Shown here: in pieces, positions 11,115 through 22,292 of the stretch
Layout of the letters: each line of letters begins with the position of its first letter
How positions within the stretch are numbered: position 1 is the first letter of the stretch
Assembly (NCBI GenBank): GCA_016839805.1
Contig: JAEOTO010000014.1
Coordinates: forward strand, 1-22,292
DNA length: 22,292 nucleotides
Direction: 5' to 3'
DNA from: Candidatus Hermodarchaeota archaeon
GTDB lineage: Archaea > Asgardarchaeota > Hermodarchaeia > Hermodarchaeales > Hermodarchaeaceae
Notes under the pieces: model-generated
What the model was told of the DNA's origin: nothing
Database searches by the model: none
What the model saw: only the letters and a program-made list of their open reading frames with translations
Made by a program: the position numbers and the translations under genes

Positions 11115-14100
11115 CTAGCCAAAAAAGGTGTCTAGTCTACGCATTCCAATGGTGTCTAACCATTCAATGCCCAAGGCGTCTAATACTTGCTCAAATGTGC
11201 TTTTCACGAGATCCTTGTATTTTGCGATATCGATATCCTGTACCGTAGCCTGCTCAACGGGTTTTACCCCTCCAGTCGTTTTTACGAAGGCTATGATGTC
11301 GCCTGCGGTTACTTCGCGTCCAGCCTGCTGCAATTGTCGTGCAGCCTTCACGTGTTGAGGAGTAGTTTTAACATAGGCTTCGGGACTCTTCGTTAATTGC
11401 ACACGAATCGCCAACTCTTCTACTTTGAATTCACGACGTTCTAACATGGTTAACTTTTCGCGGGCAAGTTTGAGGATTTGTTCTTTCGCTGAAGAAAAGC
11501 CGTCAGCGTCACGGACTTGCCGGAGAATATCTATCATTTGCATGAAGGCCTCTTGGAGGAAGGCCGGTGTATTGCGTTTTTTCCCAGTGAGTCCCTTAAT
11601 ATCGACTTGATCAGCCTTAGAGACACCAAGATAATTCTTTTTACGACTAGAAAGGGCGACATAACGATATTCCTTCTCCACATCCAATTCGACTCGCAGT
11701 TCCTTCTCACTGTATTCAATTAATTGCTGCAATTGATCTTCCGTTGGATTCTCGAGAAACAAGCTATCAGTATCCCCATACAACACCGTCACGCCAATTT
11801 CTTCCGCTTTTTCAATCGTCTTCGTAATAGCATAACGACCCAAAGCCGTAATACTGTTTCCTGACCAGCACGCCTTGCCATTTCGTCGAACATAAAGCAG
11901 GTGATTAGGGACTTCCACACAGTAAACTTTTCCTTCATAATCAATCCATGACCGGTGATCTTTTACCTTATTCTGCATTGGTTCTAACATCTGATATGAA
12001 ACATAAATTTTGTAGAAATCTTGTGTATTTGATATCGTTGATGCATAGCCCATTTTTAATACAAGTTCTTGAAAACCATCAGCCAAATCCTTAGAAGAAG
12101 TACCATAGCTTCTTCCCCTCCAGCCATCACCTAGCATCATTGATTCAAATAGGATCCTTAATTGTCTTGAAGATAAGTTCAATAGGTCTCTTGGAATATA
12201 CTTGTCATGACTCTTCTGAAATTGCTTAAGATAAGAAAAAAGTTGTTTACTATGACATGTGAGATTCACTCCATAATCCTTAAACTCAAATGGTAGTTTT
12301 TTCAACCATCTCTTGATCTTCTCTCTTTTTTCTAAATCTGATTGAGTGATTATTACTTTGTATTTTCCTGATGTACATCCCTCGGCGAGCCATATCCCAA
12401 AGAATCGTAACCAATCATCCATCGGAATTCTCTTTTCTTGCTCAACATAACTTTTGAAGTGGTGTTCACTTTCAACGATTCTTCCTTTTTTATCTCTTGT
12501 TTTAATAGTAGTATCCACAAGTTTCTTCTTCATTATTGAAGGTAAAACGAACCACTCTTTTTCTTCACCATCCCACCCGGCGTTTCTTTTATATTTTACA
12601 TACTTGGGCATTTCAATAGGGGTTCTAAAGCCCCACCTTATTACCTGTTTATAGTTTTGTTTTCCCCGCCATCCCACGAACATATTATGATTTGGTGTTA
12701 CAAATAAATCGATATTACTACTAACCTGGGAAAACATCGGCCCAGAATATCGCTCTTCAATGTATTTTCTTGGTAACTCGTATTCTATTTTGCCATTCGA
12801 ACTTAATGTGGCAACTTTTTCACCAGGCCTTAAATCCTTAAACAATTTCCAACCGTTTTCTGTCAAAACTTCAGTGTCTTCAGAATAACACTCTGCGGCA
12901 GGAGCGCAATATAAGGGGAAGTGAGAAGCCCCAAGAACGCCGTAGCTGTTATGTGTTACAATTCCATTTGTGGTCACAAACCACCCATTTCCGGTTTCGA
13001 TATCGAATACAGGTTGGGGATGTGGTTCAATCTCGATGGACTTAACTCGAATAAGATTAGTTCCATTGAAGTCCATTATCCCCCGATATTTTCGTGCATA
13101 ATTCTTACCCGAAGTTTCTACGACACGAGTAATGTCAGCATCTTTATGCAGAGATGAATATTTTCCAAGTGCACTTAAGATAAAAATTAGATCTTTAGAT
13201 AATTGTAGACTTGCAGTGCTGTAACGACGCCGTCCTCGGAAATTGTAGTTCCCATCACCTTTAAAGTAGGTTTGGAGTAAAGCTGTAGCCCTTTCCTTAT
13301 TCAAAAGGGAGATTGGTATTCTTTTATTATTTGCATGAGTTCCACATAAAGTGCCAATGACAGAAGAAAGAATATTGGAATGGACAGTTATTGTCTTATC
13401 ACCATAGAAGACGACAGGCCAGTTTAACTCTCGTAGAAGTTTGAGAATTTCATGAACGTGTTGGGGTTTTTTCTCAAGCGATTGCGTAATAGTAAATCTG
13501 TTTTGTTGACCATGGCCTTCGGCAATATACCAACCTAATAGTTGAAAGAATTCCCTCGAAAGAGGAATTGAAATTGCCTGCCAAAAACCGCTGTAATGAG
13601 AGCTTTTACTTATTTTCACTTCAAAGAACCCAGGCGAAGCTATTCTGATAATATCTTTTTCTTTTTTTGAAAGATCGGCCCAATATGCTTTGTAGAGCTT
13701 TCGGCTTTTGCTGTAGCTGAATTTCTTGTTGATAATTTGAATTAGTTTATTATCAGTGGATTGATTTCTTCTATAGGAGAACCGTTTGTAGATGCTTCGA
13801 TGCATTCCGATTAGAAGATCGGTTGAATCAATGAGATCTGGAATAAATATTCGGCTAGGAGGTGAATCAGAAAGGGGCATTTGTCCACAGAGTAATAGTT
13901 CATCTCCTACTTTGAGTTCGCCCGCAGGAATTTCTAGTATCTGGAATTCCCTACCATATCTTCTTCCTGTTAGTGTTGAATAAATTGGTACAATGTGGTT
14001 AGAAGTACATCGTAACAATCTTCCATCATAAAGCGTTATTTTTAGAATCTTTGCTGTTCCAGTTTCAGCAAATCCTTTTATTGGCACAAAAATTGGCGTA

Positions 14101-16112
14101 CCGAAATGTCCATTATTCAAGTTTGAATTTATCGAGAGGATCTCATAATCTGCCCAAATATCTTTTAGAGAACCGACTGTGCGTTTTTCTATTTGTCCTG
14201 TGGGGGTTCGAATGATGACTTCTGCATCAAAGGGTAAACATGCATTGAGGAATACTTTGAGGGCTTGTTCGACAACGCTGAACCAGCTACGCTGTGAGGG
14301 GGAGAGGGTTTTATCTGTCGCACGGGGTTTGAAATGCTCGACCCGGACATCTCGGATCAACCCAATAATCTGGCTGGTAAGTCCTTCGCGACGTGTACAT
14401 ACCCAGTGGGGTGTTCCAGGAACGGTGTTGTCTTTACATTCAGGATGGTCACACCGTACGGTTTCGTAGCTCAGGTTGTAAGCTTTCATGATGCTAGGAT
14501 AAAGACTGGCGAAGTCAACAACAGTTACACCGAAGTGAACTCCCTCTTTGGGTTCGACGACGATGGCACCCAGGTATTTTTTACCTTTAATGATGGCTTC
14601 TGTGACGGCTTCGCCTTTGAAGGCGGCGATTTCGTCTTGGCGTGGAATTAGGAAGTTACGTTGTCGGTGGGCATAGTAGAGGAGGCTGCGAATCCAGTTG
14701 GATACTGCGGTTCGGGTGAGATCATGCATGCCTTGGTGTGAAAGGCGCATGAGGAGGAGAATTAAATTCATAACTAGGTCATTGTCAAATTGGGTAAGTC
14801 GCATGGTGAGGCTGGCATCTTGCCAGTTATACTCGGCAAGCAGACTCGTTGGAATTGTATTTATCGATTCAGTTAACTGGATTTTTCCTTCACCGAGTAA
14901 CGCTTGGCTGAGGTTTTCAAGTCGGACTTCGCGATATCGATTTTTGAATGCATAGATTTGGATGGATCGATTGTGGAAGAATCGGTATAAGTCGATATGC
15001 ACCCCATACTCAAGTTCAGCTTCAGGATTTCCTCGGAATCCCCCGCGCATTCGAATAGGATTATTTGAAGGAGGAATTCCGAGTTTCTTTGAACGGTTGA
15101 CAAGATACCGGAGATCAAAGTTATCCCCGTTAAAAGTAAGTAACAGTGGGGTTCGCCAGAGTATACGAAATACAGTTTCTAAGAGCTTAGATTCGTCATC
15201 AAAGAGCTCGATTTGAACCGTATCAGGAAGGTTTGGTGTACCCAACTCCTTACGCTCACGCCGGAGGATAAAGACACGTCCAGTGCCTGTATCATCAACC
15301 AACGAGATAGAAATTACTGGCTGAGGGGCTTCCTCTGGATCAGGTATCCGATCAATGAACTCCGATTCAACCTCGATGTCAAGGGCAAGTCTGGGAAATT
15401 TTGGTGCTTGGGTGAGGAAGAGCGGAAGATATTCATCAATCAGTTTTGTTAACTCCGCTTCTTCTTTGAACAGATTCCGAATTTTCGTAGCGTCCTCAGC
15501 TGAGAACTCTTGCGGAACTGGGATGAGTGCACCCTCTTGAACTCGGTAGAATAGTCCAGGGGTAAGGGCTCGATCCATTGTGTAACATTGAGTGTATCGA
15601 ATATCTGCTTCCCAACTGTGATCACGACCTAACTTTTCCCGAATCGATTCCGGTCGACCGCCAATTGCCAGAGGATCCTTGGCCACAATTACGGTGTATT
15701 GTTGCTCTTTATCCAAAAGGAGGTTAAACTTCGAAAGTTCTTCAAGCTTGAGAAACCCTGAATGGCCAATGACCTCTTTGCGTTGACCGAGTTCTTCACG
15801 GGTTAAATCTGTTAGACAGTAGGGGTGGTGCTCCGTTGTATCATTCCATTCGTAAATCTCTCCTCTCTCGACATCGTAGAGTTTTGTTTTCGCAACCCTT
15901 GCATCTCCCTGATAATCAATGTTCACTAGGACACCTGGTGGACCGGAGGGGGCCGTTTTTGGGTAGTCAGCGGGATGAATTGGCTGATCTTGTATTTGGT
16001 TAAGGAGTTGAGTTAACAATGACAAGTGTTGTTTCTTTTTCAAACTAGCTTTAGCCGGAGAACGGGATTTACTTTGAGAGGAGTCTGTCCATGAGGAGAG
16101 ATCACGTGGCAC
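11115..16112 (-). CDS. polB1: Family B DNA polymerase (PolB1 type) precursor with two inteins; predicted mature length 889 aa
   Basis: ExoI DIEV, ExoII FNGDNFD, ExoIII YNWQDA; motif A DFASLYPS; motif B QALKVFLNA/SYG; motif C YGDTDS; KKNY; GLTGKKRNTP (PolB1-like); C-terminal PIP-like RRLDTFF. 1665-431-345 = 889 aa. Confidence 0.96.
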   Translation of the reverse strand: MPRDLSSWTDSSQSKSRSPAKASLKKKQHLSLLTQLLNQIQDQPIHPADYPKTAPSGPPGVLVNIDYQGDARVAKTKLYDVERGEIYEWNDTTEHHPYCLTDLTREELGQRKEVIGHSGFLKLEELSKFNLLLDKEQQYTVIVAKDPLAIGGRPESIREKLGRDHSWEADIRYTQCYTMDRALTPGLFYRVQEGALIPVPQEFSAEDATKIRNLFKEEAELTKLIDEYLPLFLTQAPKFPRLALDIEVESEFIDRIPDPEEAPQPVISISLVDDTGTGRVFILRRERKELGTPNLPDTVQIELFDDESKLLETVFRILWRTPLLLTFNGDNFDLRYLVNRSKKLGIPPSNNPIRMRGGFRGNPEAELEYGVHIDLYRFFHNRSIQIYAFKNRYREVRLENLSQALLGEGKIQLTESINTIPTSLLAEYNWQDASLTMRLTQFDNDLVMNLILLLMRLSHQGMHDLTRTAVSNWIRSLLYYAHRQRNFLIPRQDEIAAFKGEAVTEAIIKGKKYLGAIVVEPKEGVHFGVTVVDFASLYPSIMKAYNLSYETVRCDHPECKDNTVPGTPHWVCTRREGLTSQIIGLIRDVRVEHFKPRATDKTLSPSQRSWFSVVEQALKVFLNACLPFDAEVIIRTPTGQIEKRTVGSLKDIWADYEILSINSNLNNGHFGTPIFVPIKGFAETGTAKILKITLYDGRLLRCTSNHIVPIYSTLTGRRYGREFQILEIPAGELKVGDELLLCGQMPLSDSPPSRIFIPDLIDSTDLLIGMHRSIYKRFSYRRNQSTDNKLIQIINKKFSYSKSRKLYKAYWADLSKKEKDIIRIASPGFFEVKISKSSHYSGFWQAISIPLSREFFQLLGWYIAEGHGQQNRFTITQSLEKKPQHVHEILKLLRELNWPVVFYGDKTITVHSNILSSVIGTLCGTHANNKRIPISLLNKERATALLQTYFKGDGNYNFRGRRRYSTASLQLSKDLIFILSALGKYSSLHKDADITRVVETSGKNYARKYRGIMDFNGTNLIRVKSIEIEPHPQPVFDIETGNGWFVTTNGIVTHNSYGVLGASHFPLYCAPAAECYSEDTEVLTENGWKLFKDLRPGEKVATLSSNGKIEYELPRKYIEERYSGPMFSQVSSNIDLFVTPNHNMFVGWRGKQNYKQVIRWGFRTPIEMPKYVKYKRNAGWDGEEKEWFVLPSIMKKKLVDTTIKTRDKKGRIVESEHHFKSYVEQEKRIPMDDWLRFFGIWLAEGCTSGKYKVIITQSDLEKREKIKRWLKKLPFEFKDYGVNLTCHSKQLFSYLKQFQKSHDKYIPRDLLNLSSRQLRILFESMMLGDGWRGRSYGTSSKDLADGFQELVLKMGYASTISNTQDFYKIYVSYQMLEPMQNKVKDHRSWIDYEGKVYCVEVPNHLLYVRRNGKACWSGNSITALGRYAITKTIEKAEEIGVTVLYGDTDSLFLENPTEDQLQQLIEYSEKELRVELDVEKEYRYVALSSRKKNYLGVSKADQVDIKGLTGKKRNTPAFLQEAFMQMIDILRQVRDADGFSSAKEQILKLAREKLTMLERREFKVEELAIRVQLTKSPEAYVKTTPQHVKAARQLQQAGREVTAGDIIAFVKTTGGVKPVEQATVQDIDIAKYKDLVKSTFEQVLDALGIEWLDTIGMRRLDTFFG
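11856..12890 (-). mobile_element. Intein 2 in PolB1 (345 aa) with LAGLIDADG homing endonuclease
   Basis: Starts CYSEDTEVLTENGWK after CAPAAE; block B VTPNH; FFGIWLAEG and MMLGDG; ends VYCVEVPNH...WSGN followed by +1 Ser. Confidence 0.95.
12948..14240 (-). mobile_element. Intein 1 in PolB1 (431 aa) with LAGLIDADG homing endonuclease
   Basis: Starts CLPFDAEV after KVFLNA; block B LRCTSNH; LAGLIDADG-like LLGWYIAEG and YFKGDG; block F/G VFDIET...GIVTHN followed by +1 Ser. Confidence 0.95.
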
Positions 16113-16735: not shown

Positions 16736-18481
16736 GTGGCTTCGGCACATCCTCCAGCAGGGTTAACAATTTCGATTAGGGAACATGAACACACATTGTT
16801 GAATTCGGATAACACAATTACACGTTTTGATCCTCGTGGCCAGATGGTTGTGAAAAACAATTCACGAAAATTTGCCGTGTGGGATACAGAGCTTGAATTG
16901 AATCGACAGAATCGAACAACACTGGGTACTGACTCGCTTGATATTGGTCGATTAGATCCAATGAATGAATGGGAAAAAGACTTCATCATAAAAGAAATCG
17001 AAACCCCCATGCTCCTTCTTACAGAGACCATAGACACGTTCTATGAACGCGTAGGAATCAATAACGCCCTTGTATTTGAGTATGACATGCCAGTTGAAAT
17101 CAGCTTAAACCTTCGAAACCATTCAGGAGCGACTATTCAAGAAGTCGTCGTCTCCAAAGAGATACCACCCATTTTCAAAAATATACAACTCCAAAAACCT
17201 CAAGTCGGAAAAGCCGAATACGACTCAAAAACTGGTCGAGTTAGTTGGATAATCAAAGAAATAATTCCTGATCAAATGGTAGTTCAACGGATCAGAGCTA
17301 CAATTACTGCGGAAGATACTGAACCTAAATCGGGTGGAAAGGTATATGTCAATTACAAGGTTCCTGATGTAATTCGAAGCACACTCGTTCCAACGCTTCA
17401 TGGTTCAACTGAAACGGAGATTAGTGTTGAACGGGAAGAACATACAATGCGGACAGGTGTTTGGCGATGTAAAGCCTCGCTTACCAATTCCAGTGAATTT
17501 CCTCTCCGCATAGAACGTGTGCAAATAGTTCTCACTGCACCTGATAACGAGTTACTTTATGAAGGTACACCAAATCATCGTTTGGAATCTGGAGAAGTTT
17601 GGGGTCACGAATTCGAAGTTAGTGCCGAACAACCTGAATTTGATATCATTGCGTTATCATCCGTGGAAGCGCCGATTGTTCAAGAAATTGTTGGGTCAAT
17701 TGAAAAAGCCGAAGTTGTCTTTTCGGTGCTTCGAGTTGAAGGAAATAAACGAGTAGAGCCATTAGAGCTCTTAGCCTGGGAACCTGCACCTGTCGCTGTC
17801 ACACTTCAAGCCAAGAATACAGGGACGACTGAATGTGATGAAATAGTCTTCATTGACCCACTACCTCCAGGATTTGAAGCTCCGGAGGATACTCAAATCC
17901 GAGTTAGAGTCGGAGATAAACCCATTACACGTAGTCTGAAAGTCAATATCCGACCCGAGGATCGCGACATAAAGATTCCCCATACACTCTCGATTCAGTT
18001 GCACGATTTAATTGAAAATCATTCACCGATTAAACCGGGGGACACGGTTACAGCGAGTTATATGACCGTAGCTCGAGCACCTAAGCCTAATTATGAATAT
18101 CAGCTTCCTGTGACCATAAAGGCGAATACCTTTCCACCTGGACCACAGGCTTTGGTGGAAATTCCTGAATCCATGGCCCCAGTTATCAAAGTGCGATCAG
18201 TTGCTCGAAAGCTTCGAAAAACACGAACAGTTGCCCCCACCGAGAAAGAGGGTGAATTGTTAGTGACCGTGACCTTCGTAAACGAAGGAGAGACTAGCCT
18301 GCATGACCCAGAATTACAGGATCTCATTCCACCCAACTTTGAATACGTCGCTGTACCCTCCGGAGCACCAGAACCAGTGCTTCGAGAAACTCCGAATGGT
18401 ACCCTTGTAGGTTGGACTTTGCCGACGATGATGAGCCGAGAAAGTTTTGTCGGAAAATATATGTATCGTCCTAAGGCGTAA
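16736..18481 (+). CDS. Cytoplasmic multi-beta-sandwich protein; N-terminal region resembles a mu-homology domain, followed by Ig/DUF11-like repeats
   Basis: SD gaggtg 9 nt before the GTG; no signal peptide or TM segment; repeated V..T....N.G......V...D.[LI]P..F units; segments similar to the mu-adaptin C-terminal domain. Confidence 0.6.
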   Translation: [581 protein letters not shown]

Positions 18482-18490
18482 CTGTTGGGA

Positions 18491-19531
18491 TTAATAATAC
18501 CAGGTTTTGACTTTAGGTTCAACGAGGCCTCGTTTGGTATCGTCAGCATAAGCATAACATACAGAGTCCAGAGGACACCTGTTTTGGCATGAAATACTCA
18601 ACAAGTGAGTTGCCACATAGCAATTCGATGTGCAACCAGTCACACAAACTGGTGAGTCGAGCAAACAGCAATTACGCCCAAAATGCCAGAAAAAGTCATC
18701 AAGCTCTAAAACAGAACGGCTTGCATGCTTACTTACTAGCGAATATGCGTCGCCAATTCGTTCACGAAGCTTAACATCCTTCGCTAGACTGATAGAATAT
18801 CGGTTTTGAAGAGCTTTGGCAAGCTTTACAGAGGGGGTAACAACACCGGTTCGCAAAGCGATTCGAGTGAGATGATTATCTACTGGAATCCGTAATTGAT
18901 CAACATCTGTGTGTGTCCACAAGTTCCGTCGAAGAATAAACTTGAGAAAGAGGAAACTCTTCTTGTTGGCGGGGTCCTCATAGGCTTTGAATTCAGATAG
19001 AAGTAATAAAAGTCCAAGTTCGGTATTATCTGGGTCAGATGAGAGGCGGTGATTAGCAGAATTTAGTAGGGTGAGTACTGATCCTTCATACTTGTCTAGG
19101 AGCACCTGCCCACTGTTCCGTAGTAGTTCTGCCCGTTCACCGGGGTTTCCTATTGTTACGCGGTTCGGTGAACACACCGTATACCAGTTTATAATTTGTT
19201 TTTCGGTGATTTTTGCCATTTTTAATGGATGGAATAGCTGTGGGTTTCGAAGGAAGCGTTTCACACTCAGATGCCAAAGGAGATCTGCGCCCTGGAAGTA
19301 TTTGCCATCTACCTTTCCTTCAAAACTCTGCCCCAGGGGACTTGTTCGATGGTCGATTGCTGTGATGAAGAAAAAGAATCTTGCTGTATCTTCAGTCTTA
19401 GTATTTTTTGGAGGAAAGAAGTGTGGGTTCAGAAAATCCTCTGCATGTGGGTTTAATTTCTGAAGGTGGCGTCCCAGTTTTTGGCATTGGGGATGGAAAA
19501 TGGTTACTGAGTTATTCACAGTAAATGACAC
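18491..19531 (-). CDS. HhH-GPD/EndoIII-superfamily glycosylase-like protein with C-terminal Cys cluster (possibly related to queuosine-salvage hydrolases)
   Basis: DP..KK..L, IPVDNHLTRIALRTG (compare EndoIII VDTH..R...R.G), LDDFFW.FGR.CC....P.C plus additional Cys residues. Confidence 0.6.
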   Translation of the reverse strand: MSFTVNNSVTIFHPQCQKLGRHLQKLNPHAEDFLNPHFFPPKNTKTEDTARFFFFITAIDHRTSPLGQSFEGKVDGKYFQGADLLWHLSVKRFLRNPQLFHPLKMAKITEKQIINWYTVCSPNRVTIGNPGERAELLRNSGQVLLDKYEGSVLTLLNSANHRLSSDPDNTELGLLLLLSEFKAYEDPANKKSFLFLKFILRRNLWTHTDVDQLRIPVDNHLTRIALRTGVVTPSVKLAKALQNRYSISLAKDVKLRERIGDAYSLVSKHASRSVLELDDFFWHFGRNCCLLDSPVCVTGCTSNCYVATHLLSISCQNRCPLDSVCYAYADDTKRGLVEPKVKTWYY

Positions 19532-19593: not shown

Positions 19594-20166
19594 ATGCCAC
19601 CAACAAAAGACGCTAATATTGATGATGTTTTCCGGCAAATGACTGAAATCCTCGAAAAAGCACTTACGCGAATTAATGAGGTAGAACAGCATATCTCAAA
19701 GGATCTAGAAAGCATTCGCCGTCAATTAGATGCCGTTGGAGTTCTAAAGGATAATATTGCGAACTTGAATAACCGAATTGATTCTCTCAGTAAAAAATTG
19801 ACTGAGTTGAGTAAATCGGAACCTCAAGAACTTAACCGGATGATGCTTCGGGCAATCAGCGAGTTAGATAAGCGGATGCAGATGTTTTCTGTCAGTGAGG
19901 TTTTATCCCGTCTCGAATCAGGAGGTAGCTTTTCATCACGTCCGAGAGCTAGTACTCCATCTGGTGTCACTGCTCCAACGGCTCAAACCCCCAAAAAATC
20001 ACCTCCACCACCTCCTGTAGCAAAGGCAGCAGCGCCCGAACCCGCGCCGAGTACACCTGCACCGGCTTCAGCTGATGCAATGCCTGAGGCGCATGGAACA
20101 GACCAACCTTGGCGTGAACGAATGCGGGAAAAATATGGCTTGAAAAAGAAGCCAGGAAAAGTTTAG
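19594..20166 (+). CDS. Coiled-coil protein with Pro/Ala-rich disordered tail (PPPPP) and basic C-terminal helix
   Basis: About 105-aa heptad region, then SPPPPPV, PAP repeats and WRERMREKYGLKKK. Confidence 0.8.
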   Translation: MPPTKDANIDDVFRQMTEILEKALTRINEVEQHISKDLESIRRQLDAVGVLKDNIANLNNRIDSLSKKLTELSKSEPQELNRMMLRAISELDKRMQMFSVSEVLSRLESGGSFSSRPRASTPSGVTAPTAQTPKKSPPPPPVAKAAAPEPAPSTPAPASADAMPEAHGTDQPWRERMREKYGLKKKPGKV

Positions 20167-20212
20167 GGGCCTTCTAGTTCAAACTACTTCTTGATTACGT
20201 AGAAGCAGAGTG

Positions 20213-20665
20213 TTATTTCTTTTGGAGCTCCAGGGTACGTCTAATGAGCCGTTCCATTCGCAAACAATACAAAGCATCTTGGGCTGCTTGGAGAGTTTCC
20301 CTTAGTAATTCTAATGTCTGAGCGTCTGCAGAAGATGTGCGAAGATCACCAAGCGACTCAAAACCTTGGGCAATCGTAGCCGCAAGCTGTGAATAATGGG
20401 TTACACTACTGCGCCGTTGTTCTCGTAAATTCGAAAGTAGCTCTTGAAATTGAGGCTCAATCGTCTCCAATCGCCCCTTAACTAATTGATCAATCTGGGC
20501 AATCGTCTCTCGCAATGTCGATACTTCTTGAGTGAGTGCCTCTAACCGGTTAAACAAGTTGGTAAATGCTTGAGTGACAAAGGGAATTAATGCGGCATCC
20601 CCTGAATCAGGAGCAGCAGGTGGGGGTCCAGGAGGCGCTGGGGGCTGGGGTGGTTGCTCAGTCAT
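20213..20665 (-). CDS. Coiled-coil protein with N-terminal proline-rich segment
   Basis: MTEQPPQPPAPPGPPPAAP followed by heptads; SD aggtga upstream; 14 bp downstream of the 129-aa gene. Confidence 0.82.
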   Translation of the reverse strand: MTEQPPQPPAPPGPPPAAPDSGDAALIPFVTQAFTNLFNRLEALTQEVSTLRETIAQIDQLVKGRLETIEPQFQELLSNLREQRRSSVTHYSQLAATIAQGFESLGDLRTSSADAQTLELLRETLQAAQDALYCLRMERLIRRTLELQKK

Positions 20666-20679
20666 AGTGCATCACCTAA

Positions 20680-21069
20680 TTATTTTCCTCCCTTATTTGA
20701 GGCTTCTAAGTCTTTTACGGCCTTGAGAACCGCATCTAAGTTAATACGGTTTGTCAACTCGTCAACGATTTCAATCACAACGCGGATAGCTTCTTCGATA
20801 TCCTTTAAATTACTAAGCTCCTTTGCCCGATCAACCTCAGCAATAAGTTGAGTTTCGACAAGTTGTCGTTGTTCTCGAAAAGTCGTGATATCACGATGGA
20901 TTTCTTGTGCGGCGGTATTCGCTTCTTTTATGGTTTTTTCCATTTGCTGAGAGAGATTTTGTGACAATTGCTCCATCGCAGACCGAGTTGAATTTAGTTG
21001 TTCAGCTAAGTTATCAATACCTTTTTCGACCTTCGTAATAGCTTCCTTCACAGCAGCTGCATCAGACAT
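20680..21069 (-). CDS. Small coiled-coil protein
   Basis: 129 aa, all-helical heptad pattern; SD-like gagggg; 17 bp downstream of the actin-like gene. Confidence 0.82.
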   Translation of the reverse strand: MSDAAAVKEAITKVEKGIDNLAEQLNSTRSAMEQLSQNLSQQMEKTIKEANTAAQEIHRDITTFREQRQLVETQLIAEVDRAKELSNLKDIEEAIRVVIEIVDELTNRINLDAVLKAVKDLEASNKGGK

Positions 21070-21086
21070 TTATTGTCCCCTCAAAT

Positions 21087-22124
21087 TTACATTTTTGTGG
21101 CACCTAGCCAACTACTGTACATTGGATATTCAGGGTCATAAACCTTAACGACAAGATGCGGTATTTGGATTTTTAGATCGGTTTTAAGCCGGGATTTTAG
21201 TCCTGTGAACATGGATCCTCCACCAGACAGTACGATGTTTGAAGCGAGTTCAGCCCGTACAGTAGTATCGACTCGTTGCAATACATCCGTAATACCATCA
21301 GTTAAGCCTTTGTCTCCTACTCCAAGAAGAGTGGGTTGGAATAATACTTCGGGTGCTTGCCAAGGAAGAGCAGCAAGCGAGAGTTGCTCACCCTGATAGG
21401 AGAAGTTCGCTGTCTCATTAAACTGTTTATCCAATTGAACAGGGTGCACCTGGCACAGGGATTGTTTGATGTCATTTATTGCTTTTCCATCATTGGCGAG
21501 TTGAGAGTATAATGAAGATAGTTCGGTTGTGGTAGCTTCGGCTTGATGAAGGAGAAGCTTACGAATTTCTGCAGACACAAAGAAACTTCCAGTGATTAGG
21601 GACAAAACATGTTCCTCCAAGAGAAATCCGCGATAAATTGGGGTGATATGGGTTACCGTATAGCCAATATCTACAATCAATCCCGTTTTTCGTCCCCAGT
21701 TAACCCATGTTAACACTTGTTGAATTGCAGCATCCACATGCAAGCACCCAAGTGCCTCTCGCAGGGTTTGAGACATATCGGTAACTTGGTCAGATTTAGA
21801 TTGCGGGAAAACTAGGAGCATTAATTCCACATTATCTCGGTGTTGATGTAATTCAGGAAATTGCTCCATTGCCAGATTACAAAGTTGAGCGACAAGGGTA
21901 GTATCCTTTGGTAGGAGCCCATCTTCAAACGGAAAGACCCAAGTGCTCCTCCCTGGATCAAGCTCATGAAAGATTGGGTTACCACTTTTATTCTCAGTAC
22001 TTTTGAGAGCTGCAGGCATGACTAATGGTTCTGGTCGTGTTGGAGGACCACATTTGATGTAGCCACTACCCAGGTCGATGATTAAACTCTTGGGAGTTTT
22101 ATTCACATTTGGGAGTCTAGGCAT
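21087..22124 (-). CDS. Divergent actin-related protein (actin/Arp family)
   Basis: IIDLGSGYIKCG (phosphate 1), FPFEDG (=YPIEHG), AIQQVL (=AIQAVL), GLIVDIG..VTHITPIY.G (phosphate 2), DIKQSLC, APEVLFQP.LLG, D..VR.EL..NIVLSGG.SMF.GL..RL, YSSWLGA. These are actin-specific rather than MreB-type motifs. Confidence 0.92.
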   Translation of the reverse strand: MPRLPNVNKTPKSLIIDLGSGYIKCGPPTRPEPLVMPAALKSTENKSGNPIFHELDPGRSTWVFPFEDGLLPKDTTLVAQLCNLAMEQFPELHQHRDNVELMLLVFPQSKSDQVTDMSQTLREALGCLHVDAAIQQVLTWVNWGRKTGLIVDIGYTVTHITPIYRGFLLEEHVLSLITGSFFVSAEIRKLLLHQAEATTTELSSLYSQLANDGKAINDIKQSLCQVHPVQLDKQFNETANFSYQGEQLSLAALPWQAPEVLFQPTLLGVGDKGLTDGITDVLQRVDTTVRAELASNIVLSGGGSMFTGLKSRLKTDLKIQIPHLVVKVYDPEYPMYSSWLGATKM

Positions 22125-22202
22125 TATGTTTGAAAACAGTTTCTGTCTCTGTGAGAAAAGCAGACTCTTTTTCAGGAAGGTTTAGAGGCGACGACGCGTT
22201 GT

Positions 22203-22292
22203 TTATTTCGCCTGTTGCTTTGCAAGCGTGGCTGCACTTTTCCAAGTAAAGTTGATTGCATCTTCCAGTGCGTAAACGTTAACTGGCAAATG
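22203..22292 (-). CDS. 3' end of an upstream gene, probably a second actin-like paralog (partial)
   Basis: The minus-strand frame from the window edge reads HLPVNVYALEDAINFTWKSAATLAKQQAK*. It aligns without gaps to the neighbour's C-terminus HLVVKVYDPEYPMYSSWLGA (8/20 identical). Confidence 0.6.
   Translation of the reverse strand, partial: HLPVNVYALEDAINFTWKSAATLAKQQAK

Follow-up and report, generated by a model that had tools for sequence, protein, structure and literature searches.

Does the end of this contig encode an actin nucleation machine in an archaeon? The window analysed here is the whole of contig C49 (22,292 nucleotides) from a Candidatus Hermodarchaeota genome of 2.3 Mb that is 87% complete. 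Towards one end it carries two genes for shortened actin-like proteins (ALP-A and ALP-B) and three coiled-coil genes (CC1, CC2 and CC3, here called the trio), which, the first-pass annotation suggested, may encode one dedicated complex that nucleates, caps or anchors filaments. No machine for nucleating filaments has been found in the Asgard archaea (PMC9433394), and current work on the regulators of lokiactin points mainly to profilins and gelsolins (PMC13716822); given this background, a complex containing actin-related proteins (Arps) would be important if true. The locus is a weak candidate for such a complex. The reading that we favour, on balance and with some reserve, is of an old adaptor rod of coiled-coil proteins and a young, non-canonical actin that sit together in one stable gene block and do not form an Arp2/3-like machine.

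The four reading frames within the window, their strands and the gaps between those on the minus strand were found as the first-pass annotation had given them. On the minus strand, the last 29 codons of ALP-A (22203..22292) are followed after 78 bp by ALP-B (21087..22124, 345 residues), after a further 17 bp by CC1 (20680..21069, 129 residues) and after 14 bp by CC2 (20213..20665, 150 residues). CC3 (19594..20166, plus strand, 190 residues) converges on CC2 across 46 bp. The truncated gene had been called a probable actin paralog, and this was borne out: the end of contig C42 is identical to the end of the window over 127 bases and carries the full-length, 339-residue ALP-A (L056:14219-15238), which matches the Pfam Actin family (PF00022) with E=1.4e-33, as ALP-B does with E=5e-35. 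A NIF3/DUF34 gene lies on the same strand 33 bp upstream of ALP-A. The tandem actin-family pair is probably co-transcribed with CC1 and CC2, as had been proposed, and with the unrelated NIF3 gene, an arrangement that concerns position and is no proof of a complex. A promoter scan of the locus gave chance-level results with a bacterial consensus that is unsuited to archaea. The closest named relative is a Hermodarchaeota metagenome-assembled genome with an ALP-B 92% identical to this one, and synonymous and non-synonymous codon differences from the nearest relative stand at 86:16 for ALP-A, 58:26 for ALP-B and 20:8 for CC1; judged by such differences, the ALP and coiled-coil genes are under purifying selection.

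An old trio and a young actin clade

Iterated profile searches covered the 113 genomes of nine Asgard families and detected CC1 in 110 of them and CC3 in 104, related genomes not being independent. The nine families include Odinarchaeum, Freyarchaeum, Helarchaeota, Jordarchaeales, Loki-type genomes and Hermodarchaeia, and in eight of the nine the trio is present without ALP-A or ALP-B. The trio profiles matched 0 of 76 and 0 of 29 genomes in two other large Asgard families, which does not prove that the trio is absent there. CC1, CC2 and CC3 lie next to each other, with CC1 and CC2 in tandem and CC3 convergent, in Hermodarchaeia, Jordarchaeales, Freyarchaeum, Odinarchaeum, Helarchaeota and two further families; a colinear run of CC3, CC1 and CC2 occurs as second copies in two genomes, and Loki-type genomes have CC1 and CC2 paired and CC3 at a distance. 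The flanking genes vary by lineage. The main evidence that the trio works as a unit is that its genes have stayed together through several rearrangements. No actin-family gene was found beside trio genes in 49 loci outside Hermodarchaeia (whole loci, or three genes on each side), and in the near-complete genomes G019, G024 and G030 lokiactin lies about 0.6 Mb from the trio. By this distribution the coiled-coil trio is older than the ALPs, and the proposal that the five genes form one dedicated unit is not supported, eight families having the trio and no ALP. The first gene of the Loki pair matches both the CC1 and the CC2 profile (hhalign probability 93 and 97%), which makes CC1 and CC2 probable paralogs, with CC3 standing further off.

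CC3 consists of a coiled coil of about 105 residues, a variable linker of proline, alanine and serine, and a conserved C-terminal motif. From Loki to Freya the family ends in an acidic stretch followed by L[LIM][KR]PS[DS][LF]F, with which the proline of the Hermodarchaeia tail aligns. This tail looks, from its conservation, like a docking motif for a partner common to lineages without ALPs. Most likely, CC1, CC2 and CC3 would bundle into a heteromeric coiled-coil rod about 12–13 nm long; we infer that the rod acts as an adaptor, whose flexible CC3 tail would dock a short motif on a partner that many Asgard lineages have in common. Eight families have no ALPs, so that neither ALP-A nor ALP-B can be the partner there.

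Several further features of the trio were noted. An inversion of CC3 in one Freyarchaeia genome (L075:7175-7792) gives a colinear run of CC1, CC2 and CC3. Odinarchaeum CC2 (L077:8251-8652, L081:7844-8245, L078:7772-8173) has no ATG, GTG or TTG start and apparently begins at a conserved ATT, with a GGAGG site a few bases before it; having no standard start codon, it may escape gene callers. In Jordarchaeales and Freyarchaeum a gene of 222–235 codons lies upstream of CC1 (L068:6801-7469, L076:9218-9907) and is a candidate trio partner; its protein is weakly roadblock-like at the N-terminus and probably has a winged helix at the C-terminus. In most Loki-type genomes CC1 and CC2 are followed on the same strand by a gene for a protein of about 290–300 residues with no Pfam match (L146:1513-2385; equivalents in L085-L100). 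The Helarchaeota genome G239 has three sets of the trio genes and genome G296 has two (L092, L093, L094, L079, L098), and one of the G239 sets lies directly upstream of a PolB-like gene. Family f8 has a solitary CC3 homolog with an acidic HLLRPS tail (L148:3632-4246), with CC1 and CC2 not beside it.

The ALPs are distributed quite differently. An ALP profile matched all 18 Hermodarchaeia genomes at 1e-64 to 1e-168, and the next-best matches among 301 Asgard genomes were ordinary lokiactins at about 1e-41. An actin-family phylogeny of the kind for which the first-pass annotation had called was built from lokiactins and other Asgard actin-related proteins, together with a few actins of eukaryote type, with eukaryotic Arp2 and Arp3 not included. 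All ALPs formed a single clade on a long stem (SH-aLRT 100), separate from the lokiactins, those of Hermodarchaeia included; as this was a quick tree of 67 rows with long branches, the strongly supported ALP clade is the only grouping relied upon. On this tree and the profile searches, the ALP clade is confined to Hermodarchaeia.

Within the clade ALP-A and ALP-B share 39% identity. Both are carried by this genus and by lineage L123; the sister genus g2 has one A-type copy, in L143 and L145 a single B-type copy directly follows NIF3, and L122 carries a lone basal-type ALP. Since A-only and B-only lineages exist, ALP-A and ALP-B are not an obligate pair, and one copy would suffice. A recent duplication within this genus only was rejected, the tree joining A and B against the single-copy types failing an approximately unbiased (AU) test (p=0.006). 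The duplication is therefore older, though still within Hermodarchaeia, and reciprocal losses came after it; the suggested likeness to the pair in Arp2/3 is not supported, as either copy can be lost. The best PDB profile match was the Hodarchaeal HC1 actin (141 bits), with Arp1 at 131, Arp2 at 126 and Arp3 outside the top 60. The genome has a separate lokiactin, profilin and gelsolins elsewhere; its lokiactin is split over two contig ends (L031, L034; G000 C9 start, C32 end).

Gene order and the shortened actin fold

The order NIF3, ALP-A, ALP-B, CC1, CC2 and convergent CC3 is kept in all genomes of the genus that could be checked, namely those whose contigs span the region. The flanking genes for an RNA methyltransferase, a tRNA synthetase, a peptidase, a queuosine-salvage-like protein, a mu-homology protein and PolB are likewise conserved in order, and 18 neighbouring pairs over about 30 kb, housekeeping genes included, are adjacent in close to 100% of cases where both genes are present. 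Because background adjacency is equally high, the conserved order of the five genes carries no weight at this depth. The linkage that the first-pass annotation proposed to test across Asgard genomes is thus seen within Hermodarchaeia, but there it equals the background, and in the 49 loci examined elsewhere no actin neighbour of the trio was found. In genome G007 a gene of 288 codons with no Pfam match (L042:9695-10561) is inserted between ALP-A and ALP-B; it begins with a Cys/His-rich motif that recurs in the same genome.

The predicted structure of ALP-B (mean pLDDT 77) has the actin fold, with Z of about 27 and an rmsd of about 6 over some 290 residues, aligned as far as actin residue 346. 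We compared 27 ALPs with lokiactins, positions being given as actin equivalents. Equivalents of D11, G13, G15, K18, Q137, D154, G156, K213 and G301/G302 are retained in essentially all 27, and the phosphate-1, phosphate-2 and adenosine motifs are invariant. As these nucleotide-core residues are kept, the ALPs probably still bind nucleotide; hydrolysis may differ, since the equivalents of D157, G158, H161 and E214 are altered. The span from D11 to P70 measures 47–48 residues in ALPs and 61 in lokiactin, so that most of the D-loop is gone (in ALP-B the subdomain 2 and D-loop region is 13 residues shorter than in lokiactin). After W340 there remain 6–14 residues (23 in the basal type), as against 34 in lokiactin; ALP-B ends 6 residues after the W340 equivalent, and the ALPs are without 20–28 C-terminal residues of the C-terminal subdomain-1 helices of lokiactin. 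E24/D25, Y143, T148 and E167, invariant in lokiactins, are also lost. From established actin structures we take the lost positions to include the acidic patch to which the LKKT segment of WH2 binds, as well as the groove for the WH2 helix, profilin, gelsolin and the D-loop of the neighbouring subunit. With D-loop, C-terminus and groove residues gone, the ALPs probably neither co-polymerise canonically with lokiactin nor bind WH2 or profilin. The W-loop residues P164, G168, F169 and L170 are invariant in ALPs and the base of the H-plug (E259, L261, F262, P264) is conserved, so that a role in end binding or self-assembly is possible. The favoured reading has the ALPs as paralogs specific to Hermodarchaeia that probably still bind nucleotide but are without the D-loop and without the C-terminal wall of their barbed-end groove.

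Four observations weigh against the favoured reading. Every Hermodarchaeia lineage seen has at least one ALP directly upstream of CC1, at a gap of 14–22 bp or overlapping, g2 with 109–279 bp being the exception. The helix W.E.M..KYGLK in the CC3 tail, which has WH2-like spacing, is confined to ALP-bearing lineages. The proline-rich N-terminus of CC2 occurs in both lineages shown to carry the ALP pair. Finally, the trio matched no known family, so that its role as an adaptor is read from architecture alone.

The first two of these observations speak for recruitment, in which one ALP, of either type, would bind the older rod, perhaps through the CC3 tail helix, as a pointed-end cap, an anchor or a nucleotide-dependent scaffold. 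A D-loop-less actin would then have been recruited to an ancient Asgard rod, and the complex would cap, anchor or seed lokiactin filaments. Arp11 is a short-loop cap at the pointed end of the Arp1 filament of dynactin, and an ALP that has lost its D-loop and kept the W-loop and H-plug base would fit as an end-capping subunit. Of the hints that remain of a local tie between trio and ALPs, the tail helix found in Hermodarchaeia alone is the best. We nevertheless consider recruitment unlikely: the gene order equals the background, the barbed-end groove residues that would accept the D-loop of lokiactin (Y143, T148, E167 and the C-terminus) are lost together with the ALP's own D-loop, and lineage-specific CC3 tails occur also where there is no ALP, the Odin group having a private variant. 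If true, it would be the first archaeal multi-subunit machine of Arp type, convergent with dynactin or Arp2/3.

The same residues bear on the possibility that the ALPs polymerise by themselves into a second filament, similar to those of MreB or crenactin, with the coiled-coil genes as accessories like the arcadins of crenactin. The actins of bacteria form polymers although they lack the D-loop and C-terminus of eukaryotic actin, the nucleotide core of the ALPs including Q137 is invariant, and the genes are under purifying selection. That H161, D157 and G158 are replaced, that surface positions vary widely between ALP-A and ALP-B (39% identity) and that the trio exists without ALPs make a separate ALP filament improbable in our judgement.

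The coiled-coil proteins and their motifs

CC1 is modelled as a helix of about 85 residues followed by two short C-terminal helices. This model gave no Foldseek match, only generic long helices in VIA-align (Z <=7.3, none standing out) and nothing specific in the Atlas; Atlas feature searches for the trio returned Asgard clusters or weak leads only, and PDB sequence profiles of CC1, CC2 and CC3 returned only designed or generic coiled coils. Prediction of the complex of CC1, CC2 and CC3 with alignments supplied gave a score of 0.00 with an uncertain CC3 fold, which speaks neither for nor against binding.

The CC1 helix and hairpin nevertheless resemble what we take to be the arrangement of the ESCRT-I stalk and headpiece, so that the trio could be distantly related to a membrane-trafficking rod of eukaryotes (the ESCRT-I core, BLOC-1/BORC or a SNARE-like bundle) and the ALPs unrelated neighbours. 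The roadblock-like gene upstream of the trio in Jordarchaeales and Freyarchaeum and the mu-homology gene two genes away in Hermodarchaeia would suit such a relationship. Pfam matches to trafficking families among trio homologs are few, scattered and weak (Mod_r in 2 of 40, Syntaxin in 3 of 42, BLOC1_2 in 2 of 42) and no better than those of unrelated coiled coils, and the neighbours of the trio differ between lineages; we regard a trafficking ancestry as doubtful.

The proposal of actin regulation had drawn on proline tracts in CC2 and CC3 and on a WH2-like end of CC3. The N-terminus of CC2 (residues 5–19, 20609..20653, minus strand) is indeed rich in proline, with 9 in 12 residues, a feature shared by 15 of the 2044 open reading frames (ORFs) of the proteome, but it is limited to one branch. 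It is present in this genus and the sister lineage L123 and absent from g2, L122, the B-only L143 and all homologs outside Hermodarchaeia; as the two pair-bearing lineages form one branch, it counts as a single event. The PPPPP run in the CC3 linker (20002..20016, plus strand) is likewise real and uncommon, runs of this type occurring in 8 of the 2044 ORFs, but it is not conserved: among 37 CC3 homologs it is found in this genome alone, the longest run in the other 36 being 1–3 residues. The CC3 tail (W173–V190, 20110..20163, plus strand; W.E.M..KYGLK..PG) is invariant in Hermodarchaeia. Its likeness to WH2 proved to be one of spacing only, with no match to Pfam WH2 (PF02205) at E<=10, a search that short divergent WH2 motifs can escape, and the tail is a local version of the [KR]PSD[LF]F ending of the family.

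That the five genes form a dedicated Arp2/3-like nucleator, with the ALP pair as Arps and the coiled coils as WAVE/WASH-like activators working through polyproline and WH2, is very improbable and as to orthology already largely refuted, for although the ALPs stand in tandem at short gaps, CC2 is proline-rich in the pair-bearing lineages and the genome has profilin, the pair is not obligate (reciprocal single-copy lineages exist), ALP-A and ALP-B have no nearer relative among the actins than one another and have a Hodarchaeal actin as best structure match, there is no WH2 match or conserved PPPPP, the WH2 and profilin surfaces are lost, and the trio is older than the ALPs and is found where they are absent.

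Other genes surround the locus. A queuosine-salvage-like gene (18491-19531, minus strand; PF10343, 4e-8) is divergent from CC3 and keeps its position in all Hermodarchaeia lineages. The next gene (16736-18481, plus strand) encodes a 581-residue protein with mu-homology (Adap_comp_sub, 7e-8) and DUF11 matches; it lies two genes from CC3 in all Hermodarchaeia lineages and is a possible adaptin-like eukaryotic signature protein. A family B DNA polymerase of 1665 residues with intein and LAGLIDADG matches lies further along (11115-16112, minus strand), and its intein content varies, since relatives span about 876 to more than 1380 residues. Mobile elements were also seen: an IS605-type TnpB gene (L056:12275-13291) just upstream of NIF3 in this genome, and related elements that in G006 and G012 have inserted between the genes for the mu-homology protein and PCC.

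Significance and comparison with known systems

In the literature searched we found no description of the ALP clade or of the coiled-coil trio, though an earlier mention may exist; both appear undescribed, in keeping with the first-pass annotation, which had not recognised a described system. If an Arp complex is real here, it would have arisen late and in a single class, and would not be ancestral to Arp2/3. More solid is the finding of a coiled-coil family of three genes whose tail motif is conserved; it is near-universal across nine Asgard families, and its members are annotated only as 'hypothetical protein'. The closed genomes of Odinarchaeum, Freyarchaeum and Harpocratesius contain the trio, which is therefore testable, and the shortened ALPs offer a natural test of an actin without D-loop and C-terminus.

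The locus resembles Arp2/3 with its WASP, WAVE and WASH activators in having two actin paralogs with coiled-coil and proline-rich proteins nearby. Arp2 and Arp3 are both needed in the Arp2/3 complex, whereas the ALPs are not orthologs of either and are not an obligate pair. Searches of the 87%-complete genome gave no match to ARPC2 or ARPC4 (PF05856, PF04045) or to WH1/EVH1, and no positive control gave a signal in these searches. Unlike the WASP, WAVE and WASH proteins, the locus has no WH2-C-A module, the activator-binding surfaces of the ALPs are lost, the CC3 family has no conserved polyproline upstream of its tail, and the tail in Hermodarchaeia is basic where those proteins end in an acidic tryptophan motif.

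Dynactin, with Arp1, Arp11 and the shoulder subunits p50, p24 and p150, offers a likeness in actin-like subunits beside helical partners, and the short subdomain-2 loop of the ALPs is presumably like that of Arp11; sequence and fold matches of CC1–CC3 to p50, p24 and p150 are not above those of a generic coiled coil. The crenactin–arcadin cluster of Thermoproteales likewise places an archaeal actin homolog beside small uncharacterised genes, but the coiled-coil neighbours described here are far more widespread than the ALPs, occur without them and show no similarity to arcadins in Pfam scans. With the ESCRT-I core, BLOC-1/BORC and SNARE bundles the trio shares helical subunits of 110–200 residues and flexible tails ending in a short motif; it has no specific sequence or structure match to them, and the similarity is that of any long helix.

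The nearest comparison for the ALPs is with lokiactin and the other Asgard actin-related proteins, paralogs of which have been described in general (Rodrigues-Oliveira et al., PMC9834061). The ALPs share with these the actin fold and the nucleotide motifs, and also the pattern of extra, lineage-restricted paralogs beside a conserved lokiactin, with gains, losses and duplications (PMC9834061). They differ from lokiactin in forming a separate, long-branched clade found only in Hermodarchaeia, with a shortened D-loop span and C-terminus.

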